A stretch of DNA of 64,000 nt from a virus. This document shows, piece after piece, positions 2,892 to 12,320 of the stretch. Every line of letters begins with the position of its first letter. The stretch's first letter is position 1. The stretch lies in the UHGV virus genome UHGV-1430915; one strand, 5' to 3'. Both the position numbers and the translations under genes were made by a program. The notes below the pieces were generated by a model that was not told the DNA's origin, searched no databases, and saw only the letters and a list, made by a program, of their open reading frames with translations.

Positions 2892-2922
2892 AATTTATCC
2901 CTCTCTGCTAGTCTATGTTTGT

Positions 2923-2950
2923 ATTATATACTGCAGTTTTCAGATGTCAA
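2923..2950 (-). promoter_or_regulatory. sigma70-like promoter, leftward (TTGACA-16-TATAAT)
   Basis: Complement of 2945-2950 is TTGACA and complement of 2923-2928 is TATAAT. Confidence 0.5.
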
Positions 2951-2954
2951 CCTT

Positions 2955-3149
2955 TTACAGGTTACTCCAGTATAATCGGCATTTGCATTTTGGGCAATGA
3001 GGTTCTTTTATGTAATAACCATCAGTCTTTGGAACACTTTTTGGTGCAGTTTTAAGATTGTACCGAGTAAAGCACCGGAAGCAGGTTACCTCTCCTACCT
3101 GTTGATCGTTTATCCACTCACCAGAGTAAAGCTCTTTCTTGTTTCTCAT
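2955..3149 (-). CDS. hypothetical zinc-ribbon protein (64 aa from MRNKKELYSGEW...)
   Basis: CxxC ... CPKCKC cysteine pairs; start moved to ATG at 3149 (SD GGGAGA upstream) so it does not overlap the gene ending at 3152. Confidence 0.45.
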   Translation of the reverse strand: MRNKKELYSGEWINDQQVGEVTCFRCFTRYNLKTAPKSVPKTDGYYIKEPHCPKCKCRLYWSNL

Positions 3150-3151
3150 AA

Positions 3152-3346
3152 TTATCTCCCTAGTCCTCTGCAATCTTCTACCAGAATCTCCAGCCAGAAA
3201 GCACACGGGAACACTTTGAGGATTGAATCTTTACTCGGCTCGGAAGTTCTTTTTCCATAGGGCAGGTAGAAATACCCTCCTGCAGATTCAAACATGGCTC
3301 CTTCTGTTGTATCTATCACAGCTAGAATTAGGATTTTAGTCTCCAT
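3152..3346 (-). CDS. hypothetical protein (64 aa)
   Basis: ORF track. Confidence 0.4.
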   Translation of the reverse strand: METKILILAVIDTTEGAMFESAGGYFYLPYGKRTSEPSKDSILKVFPCAFWLEILVEDCRGLGR

Positions 3347-3400
3347 AGTGCTCCCCTGTATTAATCGTTGTGGTGACTATACCACCTTAAAATATAGCTG

Positions 3401-3871
3401 TCAACACCCTTTGTACTCCACCACGATAATATCTATATCAAAAGTGGCAAGGTTAATAATGTCCTCTACATGTTCCCACTTCAAACCGCCTATGCCGCAC
3501 CCGATCTTAGGGATGTAGAATGGTAAAATCGACCCCTCAAATACTTCATTGACTCGCTCAAATCCTTTCAGTATTGAGAAATATTCAGCATTAGGTCCTG
3601 GATAGAACTGAGTATACAGATTTATTCCGTAGACAATACCTCTCGGAGATAAGTGCTCCCAACGGGAGAACGCGCCCAGTTTACTTAGGCAACCGTGCAT
3701 AGTCATTTTATCAGCTTCCAATGCTTGAGGGAATTCACGAGCAATCTGCTTTGCTACACCCTTCCCCATTGTGTGGAAGCAGTTACAACCGTGGATCAGG
3801 TGACCAGCACCGCTCTTAAAAAGGGAGATTAAATCTCCCTCTACAGTATCAATAATCACGATATTCCAGCT
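3401..3871 (-). CDS. macro-domain protein, Poa1p-like (ADP-ribose-processing)
   Basis: Motif LIHGCNCFHTMGKGVAKQIAREFP matches the Poa1p-type macro signature (IHxCNCxxxxGxGIAxQ...P) and is preceded by an IIDTVEGDLIS strand. Start likely the in-frame GTG near 3871 rather than the track ATG at 3940, which would overlap the upstream gene. Confidence 0.5.
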   Translation of the reverse strand, partial: SWNIVIIDTVEGDLISLFKSGAGHLIHGCNCFHTMGKGVAKQIAREFPQALEADKMTMHGCLSKLGAFSRWEHLSPRGIVYGINLYTQFYPGPNAEYFSILKGFERVNEVFEGSILPFYIPKIGCGIGGLKWEHVEDIINLATFDIDIIVVEYKGC

Positions 3872-4274
3872 CCTCTTCCACAATTTCAAAAAACTCAGTC
3901 CAGCACTGTGGCATATTGGAGTTACCGAAGTGGCTTTCATAGTAAAGGTTTTTACCGCTCGGAAGATAGAAATCTGTTACCTCATAAAATCCACAATCGT
4001 CGCACTCTCCCTCTTCAAACTTGGCCTTAATCTTAATACCAAGGAAGGTGAAAAGTTTATGGATATCTTCGGTCTCGAACTCCCAACTAATGTTGTTTTC
4101 CGCATCGGTGTAAAACTGGATCAGTAGGCCATCATCCATTTTTCCAAAATATTCTGTGAAGTAGCTCCCTTCCCAGAAGTCTTTGTGACAAATAATATCC
4201 ATGCGCTTGCCCATAATAAAGGTGTGGGCGTTTCGTGCATCGTCACGAATCAGTTTTGGCATTTCATAAATCAT
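3849..4274 (-). CDS. hypothetical protein (141 aa)
   Basis: ORF track. Confidence 0.5.
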   Translation of the reverse strand: MIYEMPKLIRDDARNAHTFIMGKRMDIICHKDFWEGSYFTEYFGKMDDGLLIQFYTDAENNISWEFETEDIHKLFTFLGIKIKAKFEEGECDDCGFYEVTDFYLPSGKNLYYESHFGNSNMPQCWTEFFEIVEEELEYRDY

Positions 4275-4339
4275 CGTAGTTCTCCAGGATCAATAGGTGG
4301 TGCTACAGGAAGATCATAAAACATGGCGATCACATTCTC

Positions 4340-4537
4340 TTACGCAGGAATTGCTTCAAACAGGCCGTTATCGATACCATCTTTCAAGTAAAGATTATAC
4401 TCTATGTCGGTATCTGTGTAAAGGGCAGCATCCAGCATTCTATCTGTGAGTCCATCCATTGGGTGGAGAAACCACCACCCACGCCAGTCAAAGTAACAAC
4501 CTGGTGCATCTTCTCTCACACGGATTCGATAAATCAT
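4340..4537 (-). CDS. hypothetical protein (65 aa)
   Basis: ORF track. Confidence 0.4.
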   Translation of the reverse strand: MIYRIRVREDAPGCYFDWRGWWFLHPMDGLTDRMLDAALYTDTDIEYNLYLKDGIDNGLFEAIPA

Positions 4538-4633: not shown

Positions 4634-5050
4634 TCAACAGAAAACTTCAACAAATTCTTCCACAGTTTTAATGTCGTGGGAAAAAGGTTTACGGCTATAA
4701 CGAGCAATAGCACTGTCAACCACCGCCCGGTACTCCAAATCTTCAGAATATTTCATGAAGCATTGCAATGTCTCTGGACAGATAGCCAGATAGCTCCACC
4801 ACCCCTCTTCAGATTGGTAGTCAAATCCCATACTCTCTAGCCACGAAGCGTATACACCTGCACCTTCCAGCCAGTGAGTATTTTCATCAAGGAACTTGTT
4901 CACAGTCATGTGAGCTTCTAAGCATTTATCCAACTCTTTTCCGTTAACCAGCCACGCACTGACAGTGGCGCATCCAAGGTCCACAGATTGGGTTGATAGA
5001 TTGTATTGGTCATAGTTCTCAGGTTTAACAATGATATCTTCTAATGTCAT
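4634..5050 (-). CDS. hypothetical protein (138 aa)
   Basis: ORF track. Confidence 0.5.
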   Translation of the reverse strand: MTLEDIIVKPENYDQYNLSTQSVDLGCATVSAWLVNGKELDKCLEAHMTVNKFLDENTHWLEGAGVYASWLESMGFDYQSEEGWWSYLAICPETLQCFMKYSEDLEYRAVVDSAIARYSRKPFSHDIKTVEEFVEVFC

Positions 5051-5068: not shown

Positions 5069-5097
5069 CAAAAATGCCCCACCCTTTCGGGTAGGGC
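5069..5097 (-). terminator. rho-independent terminator (minus strand), GAAA-loop family
   Basis: On the minus strand GCCCUACCC-GAAA-GGGUGGGGC then a U-tract; the stem has a G.U wobble only on the minus transcript (C.A mismatch on plus). Confidence 0.6.
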
Positions 5098-5112: not shown

Positions 5113-6339
5113 TTAAAAAGGTATGTCATCATCAAAGGCGTACTGTGCCGGATTCTGATCCATCGGGTCGTCTTCCGCATCATCTACAGGAGGAGCGTCT
5201 ACAGTGTTTTGCTGTGGGGCGGCTTCCTGTTTGGCAGCTTGAGGCTCTTGATGGTCAGTGGCTCCAGCACCGTTCTTGATCCAATCATACAACGGTTCAG
5301 CAAGATTAGTCAAGACATCTTTTGCCTCTGCAGTAATTGCTACTGCAAAATCATCAACTTTCGTTTTCTTGTCAATACGGCGACAAGCGTTCAATACCGC
5401 ATTACCAACACTGGCACCTACTTCATCTTCAGTTCGGTTAGTGGCTTGAGCGTACTCTTTCTTAAGCTCGATGGTGACCACGTGCAGTGTTTTAGCCACA
5501 TCTAAAGGGCTGTCAATCTTAAACCCGCGATCCAGGATGATCTGCAATGCATTGATACTGTGCCCTGTCTCTACACCGATGGGGTCGTAAGAGGATTTAC
5601 GCTTACCACCAGAACCTTGTGTACCGTTCTCTGCTTTAGGCGGGTAGGCCTTGAAGCCGCTGATAATATTCCCGGTATCTTTGTCAACAATAGCCGCAAC
5701 ACGACCGCCAACCACCAGGTCTTTAAGCTGCTCATCGGAGACAACCATAGCACCTTCGCCAATCTTGTGGTCATTGACAGTAACCACGTTACCAACAATC
5801 TGAGTCACATCACCATAGATGCGTAAAACGTCCTGATTGGCATTCTGCTGAGGTTTCTGCTTCTGGCCTTGTGATTGTGTGCCTTGTTGCTGTTTTTGTT
5901 GCTGTGGAGCTGCTGGAGCCTCTCCTGCCCCCAGCTTAACCATTTTAGCCAATGAGCCTTTGTAATAGGTCTTACCGTTATGCTCATTTGCCTTTAAAGG
6001 GATATTTACGATCCATCCTGGCGTTACTGTTTCCCACTTGTCATCAATTTTAACAGAGACGGAATCTTGATGACCTGGTTTGAGCAATTTATCACCCATG
6101 CTGATCCAAACTTCTTCACCACCTTGGAGTAGGTTATCAGAAGAATCCAGCTCAGAAATCAGTAAAGAGATGGTGTGGCTGGACTCAATTTTCTTACCTT
6201 GCCACACAGTGGTTTTAATACCTGTTGTGGGATCAGCACCTTTGATTGGCTTGATGCTGACACGTTTAATCATACCGTGAGCCAGTAAAACAGTTTCACG
6301 AGGATTCATCGGGTTGGCAAATTGTTGAATAACGCTCAT
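5113..6339 (-). CDS. replication/recombination-associated protein with an E. coli SSB-like C-terminal tip (DDDIPF); candidate ssDNA-binding protein
   Basis: C-terminus ...PAQYAFDDDIPF; Q/P-rich low-complexity linker in the middle; start set to ATG at 6339 (SD AAGGAGA, TAATG overlap with the upstream stop) rather than the track start at 6486. Confidence 0.5.
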   Translation of the reverse strand: MSVIQQFANPMNPRETVLLAHGMIKRVSIKPIKGADPTTGIKTTVWQGKKIESSHTISLLISELDSSDNLLQGGEEVWISMGDKLLKPGHQDSVSVKIDDKWETVTPGWIVNIPLKANEHNGKTYYKGSLAKMVKLGAGEAPAAPQQQKQQQGTQSQGQKQKPQQNANQDVLRIYGDVTQIVGNVVTVNDHKIGEGAMVVSDEQLKDLVVGGRVAAIVDKDTGNIISGFKAYPPKAENGTQGSGGKRKSSYDPIGVETGHSINALQIILDRGFKIDSPLDVAKTLHVVTIELKKEYAQATNRTEDEVGASVGNAVLNACRRIDKKTKVDDFAVAITAEAKDVLTNLAEPLYDWIKNGAGATDHQEPQAAKQEAAPQQNTVDAPPVDDAEDDPMDQNPAQYAFDDDIPF

Positions 6340-8046: not shown

Positions 8047-8075
8047 ATTATATTAGACCCCATCTCTATTGTCAA
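8047..8075 (-). promoter_or_regulatory. perfect-consensus sigma70 promoter, leftward (TTGACA-17-TATAAT)
   Basis: Complement of 8070-8075 is TTGACA, 17-nt spacer, complement of 8047-8052 is TATAAT. Confidence 0.65.
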
Positions 8076-9542: not shown

Positions 9543-12320
9543 TTAGTGACAATCGCCCCAGTTACGACCGCACAAGTATTCACCTGTGATCTGGAACGGA
9601 ACGCCCATCATTTTAGAAGCCTGCCAGAAGCAATGCACCACCATTTCGCCCACAGGGCTCCAGATAAGTTCAAGCTTTCCGTCATCGTTCAAGATAGGAT
9701 CGTATACCGTATTTCCGTCCTTGTCAACCACTTCGTTTCCGTCCTCATCTTTGTGTGCCTTTTTGTACTTATGACCGTCGAACACATGAAGTTTAGCCTC
9801 TTGTTGGGCTTTAAATGTTTCCAGCTCTTCAATTGTGTCGAAGGTGTATACAGTTTTATACTTAGGGGTGTCAGGCACTTGAAGCTGATATTCGTCATGG
9901 TAATAAATAATACGACGAACACCTTCATCATACCATCCACGCTTCACCATTTGGTGGTGCATGAGGATTCCGACCAAGTCGCACAACGATGCACCGCCAT
10001 TTTGCTGATATGCATTAAGCAAAGAGTGTTTAGAGCGGGTCCAAATGGCATGCCCGTCAAAAGAGTAGATAAATTTCTTACCTGTTGCTTCCCAGAATTT
10101 CTCCAGATCCTCTTTGCGCCCCTTAAGACCTGGGTTGGCATCCCAGAGAGCATCAATTACTCTCTGCCCCAGTTCTGGAGAGATATCCAGCATATCTGCA
10201 ACTTTATCTTTTTGTGCCCCATACATAACCCCATACGTGATAGGTTTACCATCGTTACGAGACACCTCTCTACCTGCTACTTTTGTATATGCCTCAGCAT
10301 TGTTTTGGTGCGCGTCCCCGTTACTTACAACATCATAATACAGGCCGTTGTCAAACTCAAATGCACCCCAGGCCCCGATGAGCTGCTCTAAGTTGGACCC
10401 GTCAATACCGATCTCAAAGTATCCAGGAGGAACACCCCACAGACTACGCATCTCTTTACCCATAACCACTTTAGGAGATGGTTTAGGCATGTTTGCACAA
10501 ATACTATGTTTCTGTCTGGAAGTGTTTGTTAATCCAGAACTTTTAGCAGGAAGCTTGTGGTCAATCTTCAAACGTGGATGATTAAGAAGACCAGTATCAA
10601 CCTTATCTTCCTTGATTGGATCAAGGACCGATCTGCGGTTTCGCAATGATAACCACAAAACGATATCTTTAGCCATCTCTCCGTTCAATTTTTCAAGATT
10701 CGGGCACAGGTGTCCAAACGTATCTTTCAGTTGCGGAGAAGTAATAAGCGCTCTGGCTTTTCTACGTATCTTCCCAAACACTTCCTTTTTAATCCTTTCT
10801 GAGTTAGGGAAGCTTCGGAACTTATGCACAGTTGTCTGGAACTTGGCATCAGTTTTGTTCCAGAAGTTGATAATTAGATCACAATACTCTGACTCCAAAA
10901 GCTCGTCCATATATGCATATACTCGTGCATCAACATCTGCATCAGGTAAAGCTTTCTTCTTGCTGTCTTTAGTTACATCTTTAGTTCTCCACATTGTTGG
11001 GAGCCAACCAGCACTGATCAGGTATCGCTTGATGTCGTCCTGATTGCTGATTTTCATAGGTATCTTGCAGTCAGGCATTCGCTTCTGCTGTAGGTCACTT
11101 ATCGCCTGATCCATCAGCTCTTTAGGTAAAGGGTGTGGTGTAGAAGTTCCTTTGATATACCCCCTCAAGAAATCAGCCATCTTATCGGGGTCTTTACAGC
11201 CCATCTCTTCACACCATTTTATCCCCATCTTACTTACATCCCCTGTGGAGGTAAATGCTCGCTTAGGAGGAGCTTTGAACTCTAAAGCACTCATGTCCAC
11301 AGGGTAGCCAAGCTTGTCTTTTAACCATTTCCAACCATTATTGGAGATTGTCCCATCCTGGTTAAACGGCTTTTCAGGGAACTTAGGCCGCTGAGACATT
11401 GATAACTCTTTTAAAGGAAGTTGTGGTTCAACACGATCAGCGATCTCTTTCATCCACGCATCGCAACGGTCACGTAAAGCAATAGCCCCATCTATGTCGA
11501 AATACACCCCCTGTCGAGCCTGCAGCTCCATCAGGAAGTGCTGTAACATGCCTCGGCGTAATGCGTTCTTCCAGGTGATCTTCTTGAAGCCTTTCGGCTT
11601 CTCTTTGGCAGGATCGTACATAAAGTTCTGCATGTCAGATTTGCCGTAGAATACACCTTTTGATTCCGCTACCAACTCCTTCCAGAGCAACTCCTGAATG
11701 ATAACGTCCTCGAACACACGATCCACATACTTCCACAGCGGAAGCTCACGCCAGTCATCGATTTGAACTTTCTGGTTACCAAGGGCATAGCCCCATGCCA
11801 TAAGACCATGAGGTCCAACAGGCTGCATTTTCTTAGTAACTGGATTGAATACTGCGTCCGGACAACCTTTTGGCAAAGGGCGGTCAGGCCACAAGATTCG
11901 ACTCATCGCTAACGTATCAAACAGATTAACCTGGTGGTCGTTGATAGTTCCCATGCATTTAGGATCACGGAACATATCAAAATGAATACCGGATAATCTC
12001 TCCATCAGCATAAAGTCGTAGCTGTAGCAGTTATGACAGTTCAAAGCTGTAGGTGACCAGTCTGAGTTACCTGTAAGCCAACCCTCCAACTCTGAAAAAT
12101 CTGCTATGCGAACATCAAAATCTGTATAAAGGGTCTTCTTTGCCAGAATGAAGTTCTTAGCTTTCTCCACATCCTCTTCAGAGTAGTGTGTGTGGTCATT
12201 TAGAGGAAGGAACAGCATAAAACGGTTCTTATTCAACTCTTTAAACAAACCGCAGTGATAATAAAGATCTGGATCTTCCAGCAGGCCAGAGGCCTCAAAA
12301 TCGAAAGACCACATACTCAT
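9543..12320 (-). CDS. DNA polymerase, family A (T7 gp5-like, with 3'-5' exonuclease)
   Basis: Exo I motif FDFEASGL at residues 6-13 (the position it has in T7 gp5); motif A-like DGSNLEQL, motif B K..YG..YG, motif C YYHDE. Confidence 0.85.
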   Translation of the reverse strand: MSMWSFDFEASGLLEDPDLYYHCGLFKELNKNRFMLFLPLNDHTHYSEEDVEKAKNFILAKKTLYTDFDVRIADFSELEGWLTGNSDWSPTALNCHNCYSYDFMLMERLSGIHFDMFRDPKCMGTINDHQVNLFDTLAMSRILWPDRPLPKGCPDAVFNPVTKKMQPVGPHGLMAWGYALGNQKVQIDDWRELPLWKYVDRVFEDVIIQELLWKELVAESKGVFYGKSDMQNFMYDPAKEKPKGFKKITWKNALRRGMLQHFLMELQARQGVYFDIDGAIALRDRCDAWMKEIADRVEPQLPLKELSMSQRPKFPEKPFNQDGTISNNGWKWLKDKLGYPVDMSALEFKAPPKRAFTSTGDVSKMGIKWCEEMGCKDPDKMADFLRGYIKGTSTPHPLPKELMDQAISDLQQKRMPDCKIPMKISNQDDIKRYLISAGWLPTMWRTKDVTKDSKKKALPDADVDARVYAYMDELLESEYCDLIINFWNKTDAKFQTTVHKFRSFPNSERIKKEVFGKIRRKARALITSPQLKDTFGHLCPNLEKLNGEMAKDIVLWLSLRNRRSVLDPIKEDKVDTGLLNHPRLKIDHKLPAKSSGLTNTSRQKHSICANMPKPSPKVVMGKEMRSLWGVPPGYFEIGIDGSNLEQLIGAWGAFEFDNGLYYDVVSNGDAHQNNAEAYTKVAGREVSRNDGKPITYGVMYGAQKDKVADMLDISPELGQRVIDALWDANPGLKGRKEDLEKFWEATGKKFIYSFDGHAIWTRSKHSLLNAYQQNGGASLCDLVGILMHHQMVKRGWYDEGVRRIIYYHDEYQLQVPDTPKYKTVYTFDTIEELETFKAQQEAKLHVFDGHKYKKAHKDEDGNEVVDKDGNTVYDPILNDDGKLELIWSPVGEMVVHCFWQASKMMGVPFQITGEYLCGRNWGDCH

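Follow-up and report, generated by a model that had tools for sequence, protein, structure and literature searches.

The window analysed here, a 64,000-nucleotide stretch of the virus genome UHGV-1430915, belongs to a Vequintavirus, an rV5-like myovirus of Escherichia coli, and encodes a small stand-alone macrodomain on its minus strand. We consider it probable, judging from homology, that this 17-kDa protein, an ALC1/TARG1-like macrodomain of the AdfM family, reverses the ADP-ribosylation of thymidine by the toxin DarT2, so that the phage escapes the DarTG2 defence system. The gene is located as follows.

3401..3859, minus strand: coding sequence of a Tk.4/AdfM-family orphan macrodomain, 152 amino acids, GTG start, boundaries as annotated in Escherichia phage ECP2303 and in FFH2.

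The encoded protein has a mass of 16.9 kDa. Over the 1.5 kb around the gene the window is 99.8% identical to ECP2303, and 119 phage records share at least 80% identity with this region. The gene is intact and is conserved in 117 of these 119 close relatives, and GenBank labels it 'macro domain protein' or 'phosphatase'.

The macrodomain fold, already proposed in a first-pass annotation of this DNA, was borne out by a profile search, a predicted structure and a fold search. The Pfam profile Macro (PF01661) matches with 31.3 bits against a gathering cutoff of 22 (E=2.1e-7) and is covered from position 1 to position 118 of 118. The PHROG 335 profile ('phosphatase') matches with E=3e-60. An AlphaFold2 model calculated from 45 homologues, with a mean predicted local distance difference test (pLDDT) of 94.5 and a predicted template modelling (pTM) score of 0.89, displays the three-layer alpha/beta/alpha arrangement of macrodomains. 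Foldseek assigned a probability of 1.0 to solved macrodomains, and its top hits were T. aquaticus DarG, TARG1, Poa1p, M. tuberculosis DarG, SCO6735 and BT1257 (TM scores from 0.70 to 0.76). The nearest structural neighbours are thus DarG, TARG1, SCO6735/BT1257 and Poa1p, and not macrodomains of the MacroD, viral or PARG types. A profile of the family gave a similar picture, with 68.5 bits for DarG, 65 for TARG1, 61 for SCO6735, 60 for BT1257 and 56.7 for Poa1p, a spread within 12 bits. Because both sets of scores are nearly equal across the class, the protein is placed in the ALC1/TARG1-like class at a roughly equal distance from its characterized members.

The first-pass annotation had described the protein as Poa1p-like. 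This applies only to the N-terminal H-x-C-N-C motif and to the broad ALC1/TARG1/Poa1p-like class; Poa1p is the lowest-scoring of the solved members that span the domain (56.7 bits versus 68.5 bits for DarG). The N-terminal segment LIHGCNCFHTMGKG matches LIHSCNCNGSWGGG of the yeast protein (PDB entries 6LFQ–6LFU; residues 6–47 aligned to Poa1p residues 10–50 by phmmer). The match comprises the I-H-x-C-N-C motif with His23 and a hydroxyl residue at position 30, which are the sites of the deposited Poa1p mutants H23A and S30A. Together with the name 'phosphatase' used for the family by GenBank and PHROG, and the historical label 'A1pp phosphatase' of T4 Tk.4 and PHROG 335, this resemblance would suit a Poa1p-type phosphatase acting on ADP-ribose-1''-phosphate, or a deacetylase of O-acetyl-ADP-ribose, with a housekeeping role in nucleotide or RNA repair. 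We regard such a function as improbable. The 'phosphatase' label is a transferred annotation, and Poa1p differs from the phage protein in having Ser in place of Gln after the conserved Thr and a large insertion, missing here, before the P-x-I-x-x-G phosphate loop. It is a small-molecule ADP-ribose-1''-phosphate phosphatase and not a glycohydrolase. In addition, no source of ADP-ribose-1''-phosphate is evident among the genes of the neighbourhood, and the only known phenotype of the family is sensitivity to DarTG2.

This phenotype comes from bacteriophage T4. A BLASTP alignment of the window protein with T4 Tk.4 extends over the full length (41% identity in 153 aligned columns, E=7e-43), and both proteins contain HGCNCFHTMG, NLYTQ and the Gly loop P-x-IG-x-GIG. 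Tk.4 of the Krischvirus ECD7, encoded in the syntenic position vs-tk.4-tk, is 70.5% identical to the window protein. The window protein, T4 Tk.4 and gp104 of phage PhiKZ all fall into the broad PHROG 335, and tblastn yielded homologues in 2739 of 50,697 phage records (~5%), including the T-even tk.4 genes beside vs. By these sequence criteria the protein is a member of the Tk.4/AdfM family. T4 Tk.4 and its Krischvirus orthologues resemble it in length (155 versus 152 amino acids), in their motifs, in the PHROG assignment and in standing alone among small accessory genes. T4, however, belongs to another phage subfamily, and its gene lies between vs and tk, whereas the gene in the window lies next to an open reading frame termed ORF141, downstream of a DNA polymerase gene.

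Among the T4 genes screened by Humolli et al., tk.4 alone was depleted on a DarTG2 host. Its clean knockout renders T4 sensitive to DarTG2, and the gene was named adfM, for anti-DarT factor Macrodomain (bioRxiv 10.1101/2025.11.20.689424). Furthermore, all ALC1-like macrodomains assayed in PMC9411070 (DarG, TARG1 and SCO6735) reverse the thymidine ADP-ribosylation produced by DarT. Since the window protein is homologous to T4 Tk.4 and, more closely, to Krischvirus Tk.4, and since deletion of tk.4 results in DarTG2 sensitivity, homology lends support to an earlier suggestion of the first-pass annotation, namely that the protein could reverse DarT-type ADP-ribosylation of DNA.

Residue conservation in the active site was evaluated with the 45 homologues. 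Gly24, Asn26, Met31, Gly34, Ala36, Asn80, Gln84, Gly88, Pro117, Ile119, Gly120 and Gly122 are invariant, and His23, Cys27, Gly32, Tyr82, Thr83 and Gly125 are nearly so. Most of these residues are found in three motifs.

3728..3796, minus strand: motif IHGCNCFHTMGKGVAKQIAREFP, residues 22–44, with the near-invariant His23, the invariant Asn26 and the first Gly-rich loop M31-G32-x-G34.
3608..3622, minus strand: motif N80-L-Y-T-Q84, with the invariant Gln84 where TARG1 (K84) and DarG have their catalytic Lys.
3485..3511, minus strand: phosphate-binding loop P117-K-I-G-C-G-I-G-G125, aligned with PRIGCGL of TARG1 and BT1257.

The first of them is the motif quoted in the first-pass annotation, and it is indeed encoded within the open reading frame 3401..3940 given there. 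Asn26 aligns with the conserved macrodomain Asn of DarG. In profile as well as multiple alignments Gln84 coincides with Lys84 of TARG1 and with the first Lys of the sequence PTKKHW of M. tuberculosis DarG, so that an invariant Gln takes the place of the Lys used for catalysis by DarG and TARG1. The dipeptide [T/S]-Q is retained in 95 out of 104 homologues.

A Gln at this position is compatible with activity on DNA. SCO6735 from Streptomyces coelicolor carries Gln85 in place of the Lys and clears the thymidine ADP-ribosylation made by DarT more rapidly than DarG and TARG1 do. Its activity is lost or reduced in the mutants Q85A (inactive), N27S and G128E, and the proposed mechanism is water-mediated, with the Gln positioning the distal ribose (PMC9411070). 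BT1257, which is 54% identical to SCO6735 (PMC9411070), shows the same N-x-x-x-Q pattern in our alignment. An Asn-to-Ala mutant of PhiKZ gp104 (construct N23A) has likewise lost activity or shows a reduced one (PMC13309987). The residues characteristic of the SCO6735/BT1257 subclass are conserved in the phage protein as His23, Asn26, Gln84, Gly120 and Gly122. Their equivalence to His24, Asn27, Gln85, Gly126 and Gly128 of SCO6735 was derived from a transitive alignment via DarG, TARG1 and BT1257 and from a statement in PMC9411070, not from a direct alignment; a search with a C-terminal sub-query for an alignment to SCO6735 (5E3B) matched the phosphate loop alone. With this correspondence, every residue that matters in SCO6735 is conserved in the phage family as far as the alignments indicate. 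SCO6735 and BT1257 (PDB entries 5E3B and 2FG1/2AFC) are therefore alike to the phage protein as Gln-type, ALC1-like macrodomains with a common catalytic signature. They differ from it in being cellular proteins of only ~22–23% identity, in a longer, Lys-bearing mobile loop (6 residues more in BT1257) and in an isoelectric point (pI) of 8.9 versus 5.8.

The same mutant series raises the question of inhibition by mere binding, because the catalytically dead variants SCO6735 Q85A, DarG K80A and TARG1 K84A still inhibit DarT in vitro (PMC9411070). A non-catalytic inhibitor that blocks DarT2 by binding the toxin, its substrate or its product is nevertheless very improbable in our view. The 45 homologues show little or no variation at the residues on which catalysis depends in SCO6735 (His, Asn, Gln and the two Gly of the loop), which implies selection for the chemistry, and the phage protein has no C-terminal DarT-binding domain.

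Based on the homology and the active-site signature we infer a substrate and a biological role and propose the following sequence of events. The protein would be expressed from host-type promoters, its gene being one of several small accessory genes that follow the DNA polymerase gene. It would then bind the ADP-ribose that host DarT2 has attached to thymidine in single-stranded phage DNA. Hydrolysis of the N-glycosidic link between ribose and base would free ADP-ribose and restore a replicable DNA, and the restored replication would allow the phage to escape the abortive defence by DarTG2. Catalysis is likely to depend on Gln84, held by Asn26, instead of a Lys. As in SCO6735, the Gln would hold the distal ribose in position, and water would perform the chemistry. 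Lacking the DarT-binding C-terminal domain of DarG, the protein would act as an orphan eraser and not as a cognate antitoxin.

Several points weigh against this proposal. The identity to T4 Tk.4 is a mere 41%, the case for T4 Tk.4 is a purely genetic one, made in a preprint, and within the Tk.4 family the anti-DarTG2 phenotype is known for T4 only. The same HIDEN-SEQ study contains no DarTG2 report for its Vequintavirinae library, Bas54 (bioRxiv 10.1101/2025.11.20.689424). The family is devoid of the catalytic Lys of DarG and TARG1. Moreover, the stretch following Gln84 contains no Lys and falls 6 residues short of its counterpart in BT1257; in SCO6735 the mobile loop is five residues longer and carries Lys89 and Lys93, which have been linked to activity on DNA or DNA binding (PMC9411070). 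The protein is also acidic (pI 5.8), compared with values of 8.6–8.9 for the macrodomains of DarG, BT1257 and TARG1. The two phage proteins with a phenotype against DarTG2 are acidic too, with a pI of 5.9 for T4 Tk.4 and 5.05 for PhiKZ gp104. Finally, macrodomains often act on multiple substrates, and reversal of DarT2 modification may be neither the sole nor the main role of this one.

The last two points bear on the possibility that the protein erases ADP-ribosylation of protein or RNA introduced by host toxin or defence transferases, or tunes transferases of the phage itself, with DNA repair as a secondary activity. Glu-linked ADP-ribose on proteins is a further substrate of TARG1 and SCO6735 (PMC9411070), macrodomains are the commonest ADP-ribose-processing domains in phages with many predicted substrates (PMC9503650), and an acidic pI is atypical for a DNA-binding enzyme. 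We consider this explanation unlikely, albeit the strongest competitor in terms of function. SCO6735 removed DNA marks thoroughly but protein marks only in part (PMC9411070), the single DarTG2 gene from the T4 screen, tk.4, ties the family to a DNA-modifying toxin, and no ADP-ribosyltransferase gene was detected among the neighbours that were scanned. In a further interpretation, somewhat less doubtful but still unlikely, Tk.4-type phage macrodomains would constitute a third mechanistic subclass of ALC1-like hydrolases, distinguished by an acidic surface, a short mobile loop and Gln in place of the catalytic Lys, with a substrate range perhaps unlike that of DarG or SCO6735. They might then act, for instance, on marks of several host toxins in which ADP-ribose is linked to RNA or to other bases.

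Degradation of ADP-ribose-derived immune signals, the second function considered in the first-pass annotation, found no support. A protein that destroys or sequesters such signals, for instance the cyclic ADP-ribose isomers of Thoeris, is conceivable, given that macrodomains bind ADP-ribose derivatives and that some were predicted by Aravind and colleagues to act on cyclic ADP-ribose (PMC9503650). It is, however, the least probable of the explanations discussed here, to the point of being highly improbable. By structure as well as by sequence, the relatives closest to the phage protein are without exception glycohydrolases that act on macromolecular ADP-ribose, the phenotype of the family is specific to DarTG2, and no phage macrodomain with an activity on these signals is described in the literature we surveyed.

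The eraser of DarT2 marks proposed above is related to, but distinct from, the DarG antitoxin. DarG is the sole match of the protein in both NCBIfam and PADLOC, and each match comprises only the macro part. The DarG macrodomain (M. tuberculosis, PDB entry 5M3I; T. aquaticus, PDB entry 5M31) is the best sequence and profile match in the PDB and agrees with the phage protein in the fold class, the Asn and the Gly loops. In contrast, the full-length DarG model NF048014 scores 46.2 bits against a cutoff of 250 bits, with the match restricted to profile positions 3–143 of 338 (positions 4–141 of 329 in PADLOC), and a C-terminal DarT-binding domain is missing. The phage protein has Gln where T. aquaticus DarG has the catalytic Lys80, and there is no darT next to the phage gene among the flanking genes scanned. 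An identification as DarG was rejected, as these three defining features (a full-length score including the C-terminal domain, the Lys and an adjacent darT) all fail.

Another system for comparison is PhiKZ gp104, a more distant macrodomain that was independently named AdfM (Morgan et al., Cell Rep 2026, PMC13309987). This phage-encoded orphan protein acts against DarTG2, and in vitro it erases the marks left by DarT2. It has in common with the window protein its phage origin, its orphan state and PHROG 335. Unlike the window protein, gp104 retains the DarG-type Lys (in FPTKDNW), scores 50 bits against the family profile, enters the phage nucleus and has a biochemically demonstrated activity (PMC13309987).

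The anti-DarTG2 role of the family, published in late 2025, and the macro and phosphatase labels in GenBank are already known, and for the window our assignment is an added annotation and not a new principle. If it is true, rV5-like phages would be candidate agents for phage therapy and for the biocontrol of E. coli O157, equipped with a ready-made countermeasure against DarTG2. The family would then represent a widespread orphan eraser, present in ~5% of the deposited phage genomes, and would be of use in predicting phage escape from DarTG2. Its members also form a natural collection of Gln-type active sites in which to study the hydrolysis of base-linked ADP-ribose by ALC1-like macrodomains without a catalytic Lys.

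A difference was observed at the catalytic position within Krischvirus. The tk.4 gene of ECD7 (L084:2501-2956) encodes Lys (AAA) at this position, and Gln (CAA) is found in Tk.4 of RB49, JSE, Makalu002, JK32 and LF73P4. A single C-to-A change is sufficient to give the residue of DarG and TARG1, and the Lys codon of ECD7 may reflect genuine variation or an error in sequencing. This hints that the Gln and Lys states are interconvertible by one C-to-A change.

With ~70% identity, the Vequintavirus gene is nearer to Krischvirus tk.4 than T4 tk.4 is. The difference between this value and the 41% identity to T4 Tk.4 suggests, at the level of sequence comparison, a lateral exchange of the gene between the Vequintavirus and Krischvirus lineages, which have E. 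coli hosts in common.

A scan of prokaryotes with one genome per species revealed 99 relatives with an HG[CA]NC motif and 33–50% identity, chiefly from Rhodobacterales, Hyphomicrobiaceae, Planctomycetota, Nitrospirales and Kingella. Eighty of them were kept for analysis, 75 of which contain N-x-Y-T-Q. The loop after the Gln is 3 residues longer in these bacterial proteins (L004–L083) than in the phage protein. Some of the Ruegeria and Roseovarius relatives are encoded between rpoC and rpsL. Clustering of the open reading frames within 3.5 kb of the 80 genes yielded no conserved neighbour, which characterizes the bacterial relatives as orphan chromosomal genes and not as parts of toxin-antitoxin pairs.

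In the first-pass annotation the gene had been given a span of 3401–3940 and no strand. The open reading frame is real and lies on the minus strand, where it encodes 179 amino acids from the farthest ATG, but this start is 81 nucleotides too far upstream. The following two features are relevant for the choice of the start codon.

3870..3875, minus strand: ribosome-binding site GAGGAG, read from the sequence, 10 nucleotides 5' of the GTG and within the end of the upstream gene.
3849..4274, minus strand: upstream gene ORF141, 141 amino acids, PHROG 8157, no Pfam domain; its stop overlaps the macrodomain start by 11 nucleotides.

The true start is most likely the GTG at 3859, which yields 152 amino acids. 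Closely related records are annotated with a 459-nucleotide coding sequence equivalent to 3401..3859, the homologues have a length of 150–153 amino acids and the N-terminus MIID, and none of the profile matches (Pfam, PHROG) reaches before residue 24 of the 179-residue frame. The first 27 codons of the longer frame overlap the upstream gene. Within this overlap the 8 nucleotide differences to FFH2 cause 6 amino acid changes in the frame of the extension and 3 in the frame of the upstream gene; in the 152-residue gene, 20 codons differ synonymously from FFH2 and 10 non-synonymously. Because of the annotations, the ribosome-binding site, the homologue starts, the profile limits and the substitution pattern in the overlap, the gene was taken as 3401..3859 and the 179-residue frame was rejected as a gene. 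The frame of the extension is open in FFH2 as well, and hence stop codons do not rule out the longer frame.

ORF141 and the macrodomain gene are probably translationally coupled because of the 11-nucleotide overlap between the end of the former and the start of the latter. Homologues of ORF141 in Krischvirus are weak (~36% identity) and located ~9 kb from tk.4. As they are unlinked to tk.4, the pairing of ORF141 with the macrodomain gene is lineage-specific. The wider surroundings contain two further genes of note.

9543..12320, minus strand: likely replicative DNA polymerase of family A, 925 amino acids; Pfam DNA_pol_A match weak and below cutoff, PHROG match to DNA polymerase strong.
2955..3206 (2955..3149 in relatives), minus strand: small protein with the Pfam domain Phage_zn_bind_2 (E=1.5e-22), two genes downstream of the macrodomain.

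The macrodomain gene is located ~5.7 kb downstream of the polymerase gene on the same strand. The genes between the two, and those that follow, are small, and each falls into a PHROG to which no function has been assigned. Except for the phage zinc-binding domain, no Pfam match was obtained for the flanking genes, and neither darT nor an ADP-ribosyltransferase gene was present among the neighbours scanned. A search of the window for a NADAR gene (AdfN-like, anti-DarT1) found none, although a motif regular expression is a weak test; according to the literature, NADARs among the Vequintavirinae of the BASEL collection occur in Bas60–62 only.

Promoters and terminators were located by consensus scan only. 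This gave 38 sigma-70-type promoter matches, versus 18.4 +/- 4.6 expected, the strongest of which are on the coding strand. The sites of interest are listed below.

8047..8075 and 2923..2950, minus strand: perfect 12/12 sigma-70 consensus promoters by consensus scan, intergenic in the small-gene cluster.
4394..4422, minus strand: sigma-70-like promoter TTTACA-17-TATAAT (11/12), the nearest strong candidate for the pair of ORF141 and the macrodomain gene.
3376..3404, minus strand: sigma-70-like promoter TTGACA-17-TATAGT with TG (11/12), overlapping the macrodomain stop codon and facing the next gene (3152..3346).
5076..5097, minus strand: terminator-like hairpin with a 9-bp stem, 7 GC pairs and a T-run, between the genes 5113..6339 and 4634..5050, the closest upstream on the coding strand.

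It is plausible that this pattern reflects early transcription by the host polymerase. The placement of the gene in an early region by the first-pass annotation agrees with the excess of promoter matches on the coding strand and is plausible to that extent.

Natural loss-of-function alleles of the macrodomain gene were observed in four homologous proteins from related contigs (P0017, P0019, P0033 and P0051; contigs of ~12.9–135.5 kb, three of them ~135 kb). In P0017 the N-terminus of ORF141 (..LLIQFY) is fused to the C-terminal half of the macrodomain (PGPNAEY..) by a deletion across the common 'QFY'. P0019 has an in-frame deletion between two 'WEH' motifs, and P0033 and P0051 carry a frameshift after about residues 54–65. 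The occurrence of natural deletion and frameshift alleles suggests that the macrodomain gene is accessory, that phages can do without it and that selection on it fluctuates.

Window positions 2900..4400 are ~91% identical to sixteen GenBank records (within MG065644–MG065682) that bear the name 'Campylobacter phage' and give C. jejuni as the host. These records may carry wrong host labels or derive from contaminated stocks.

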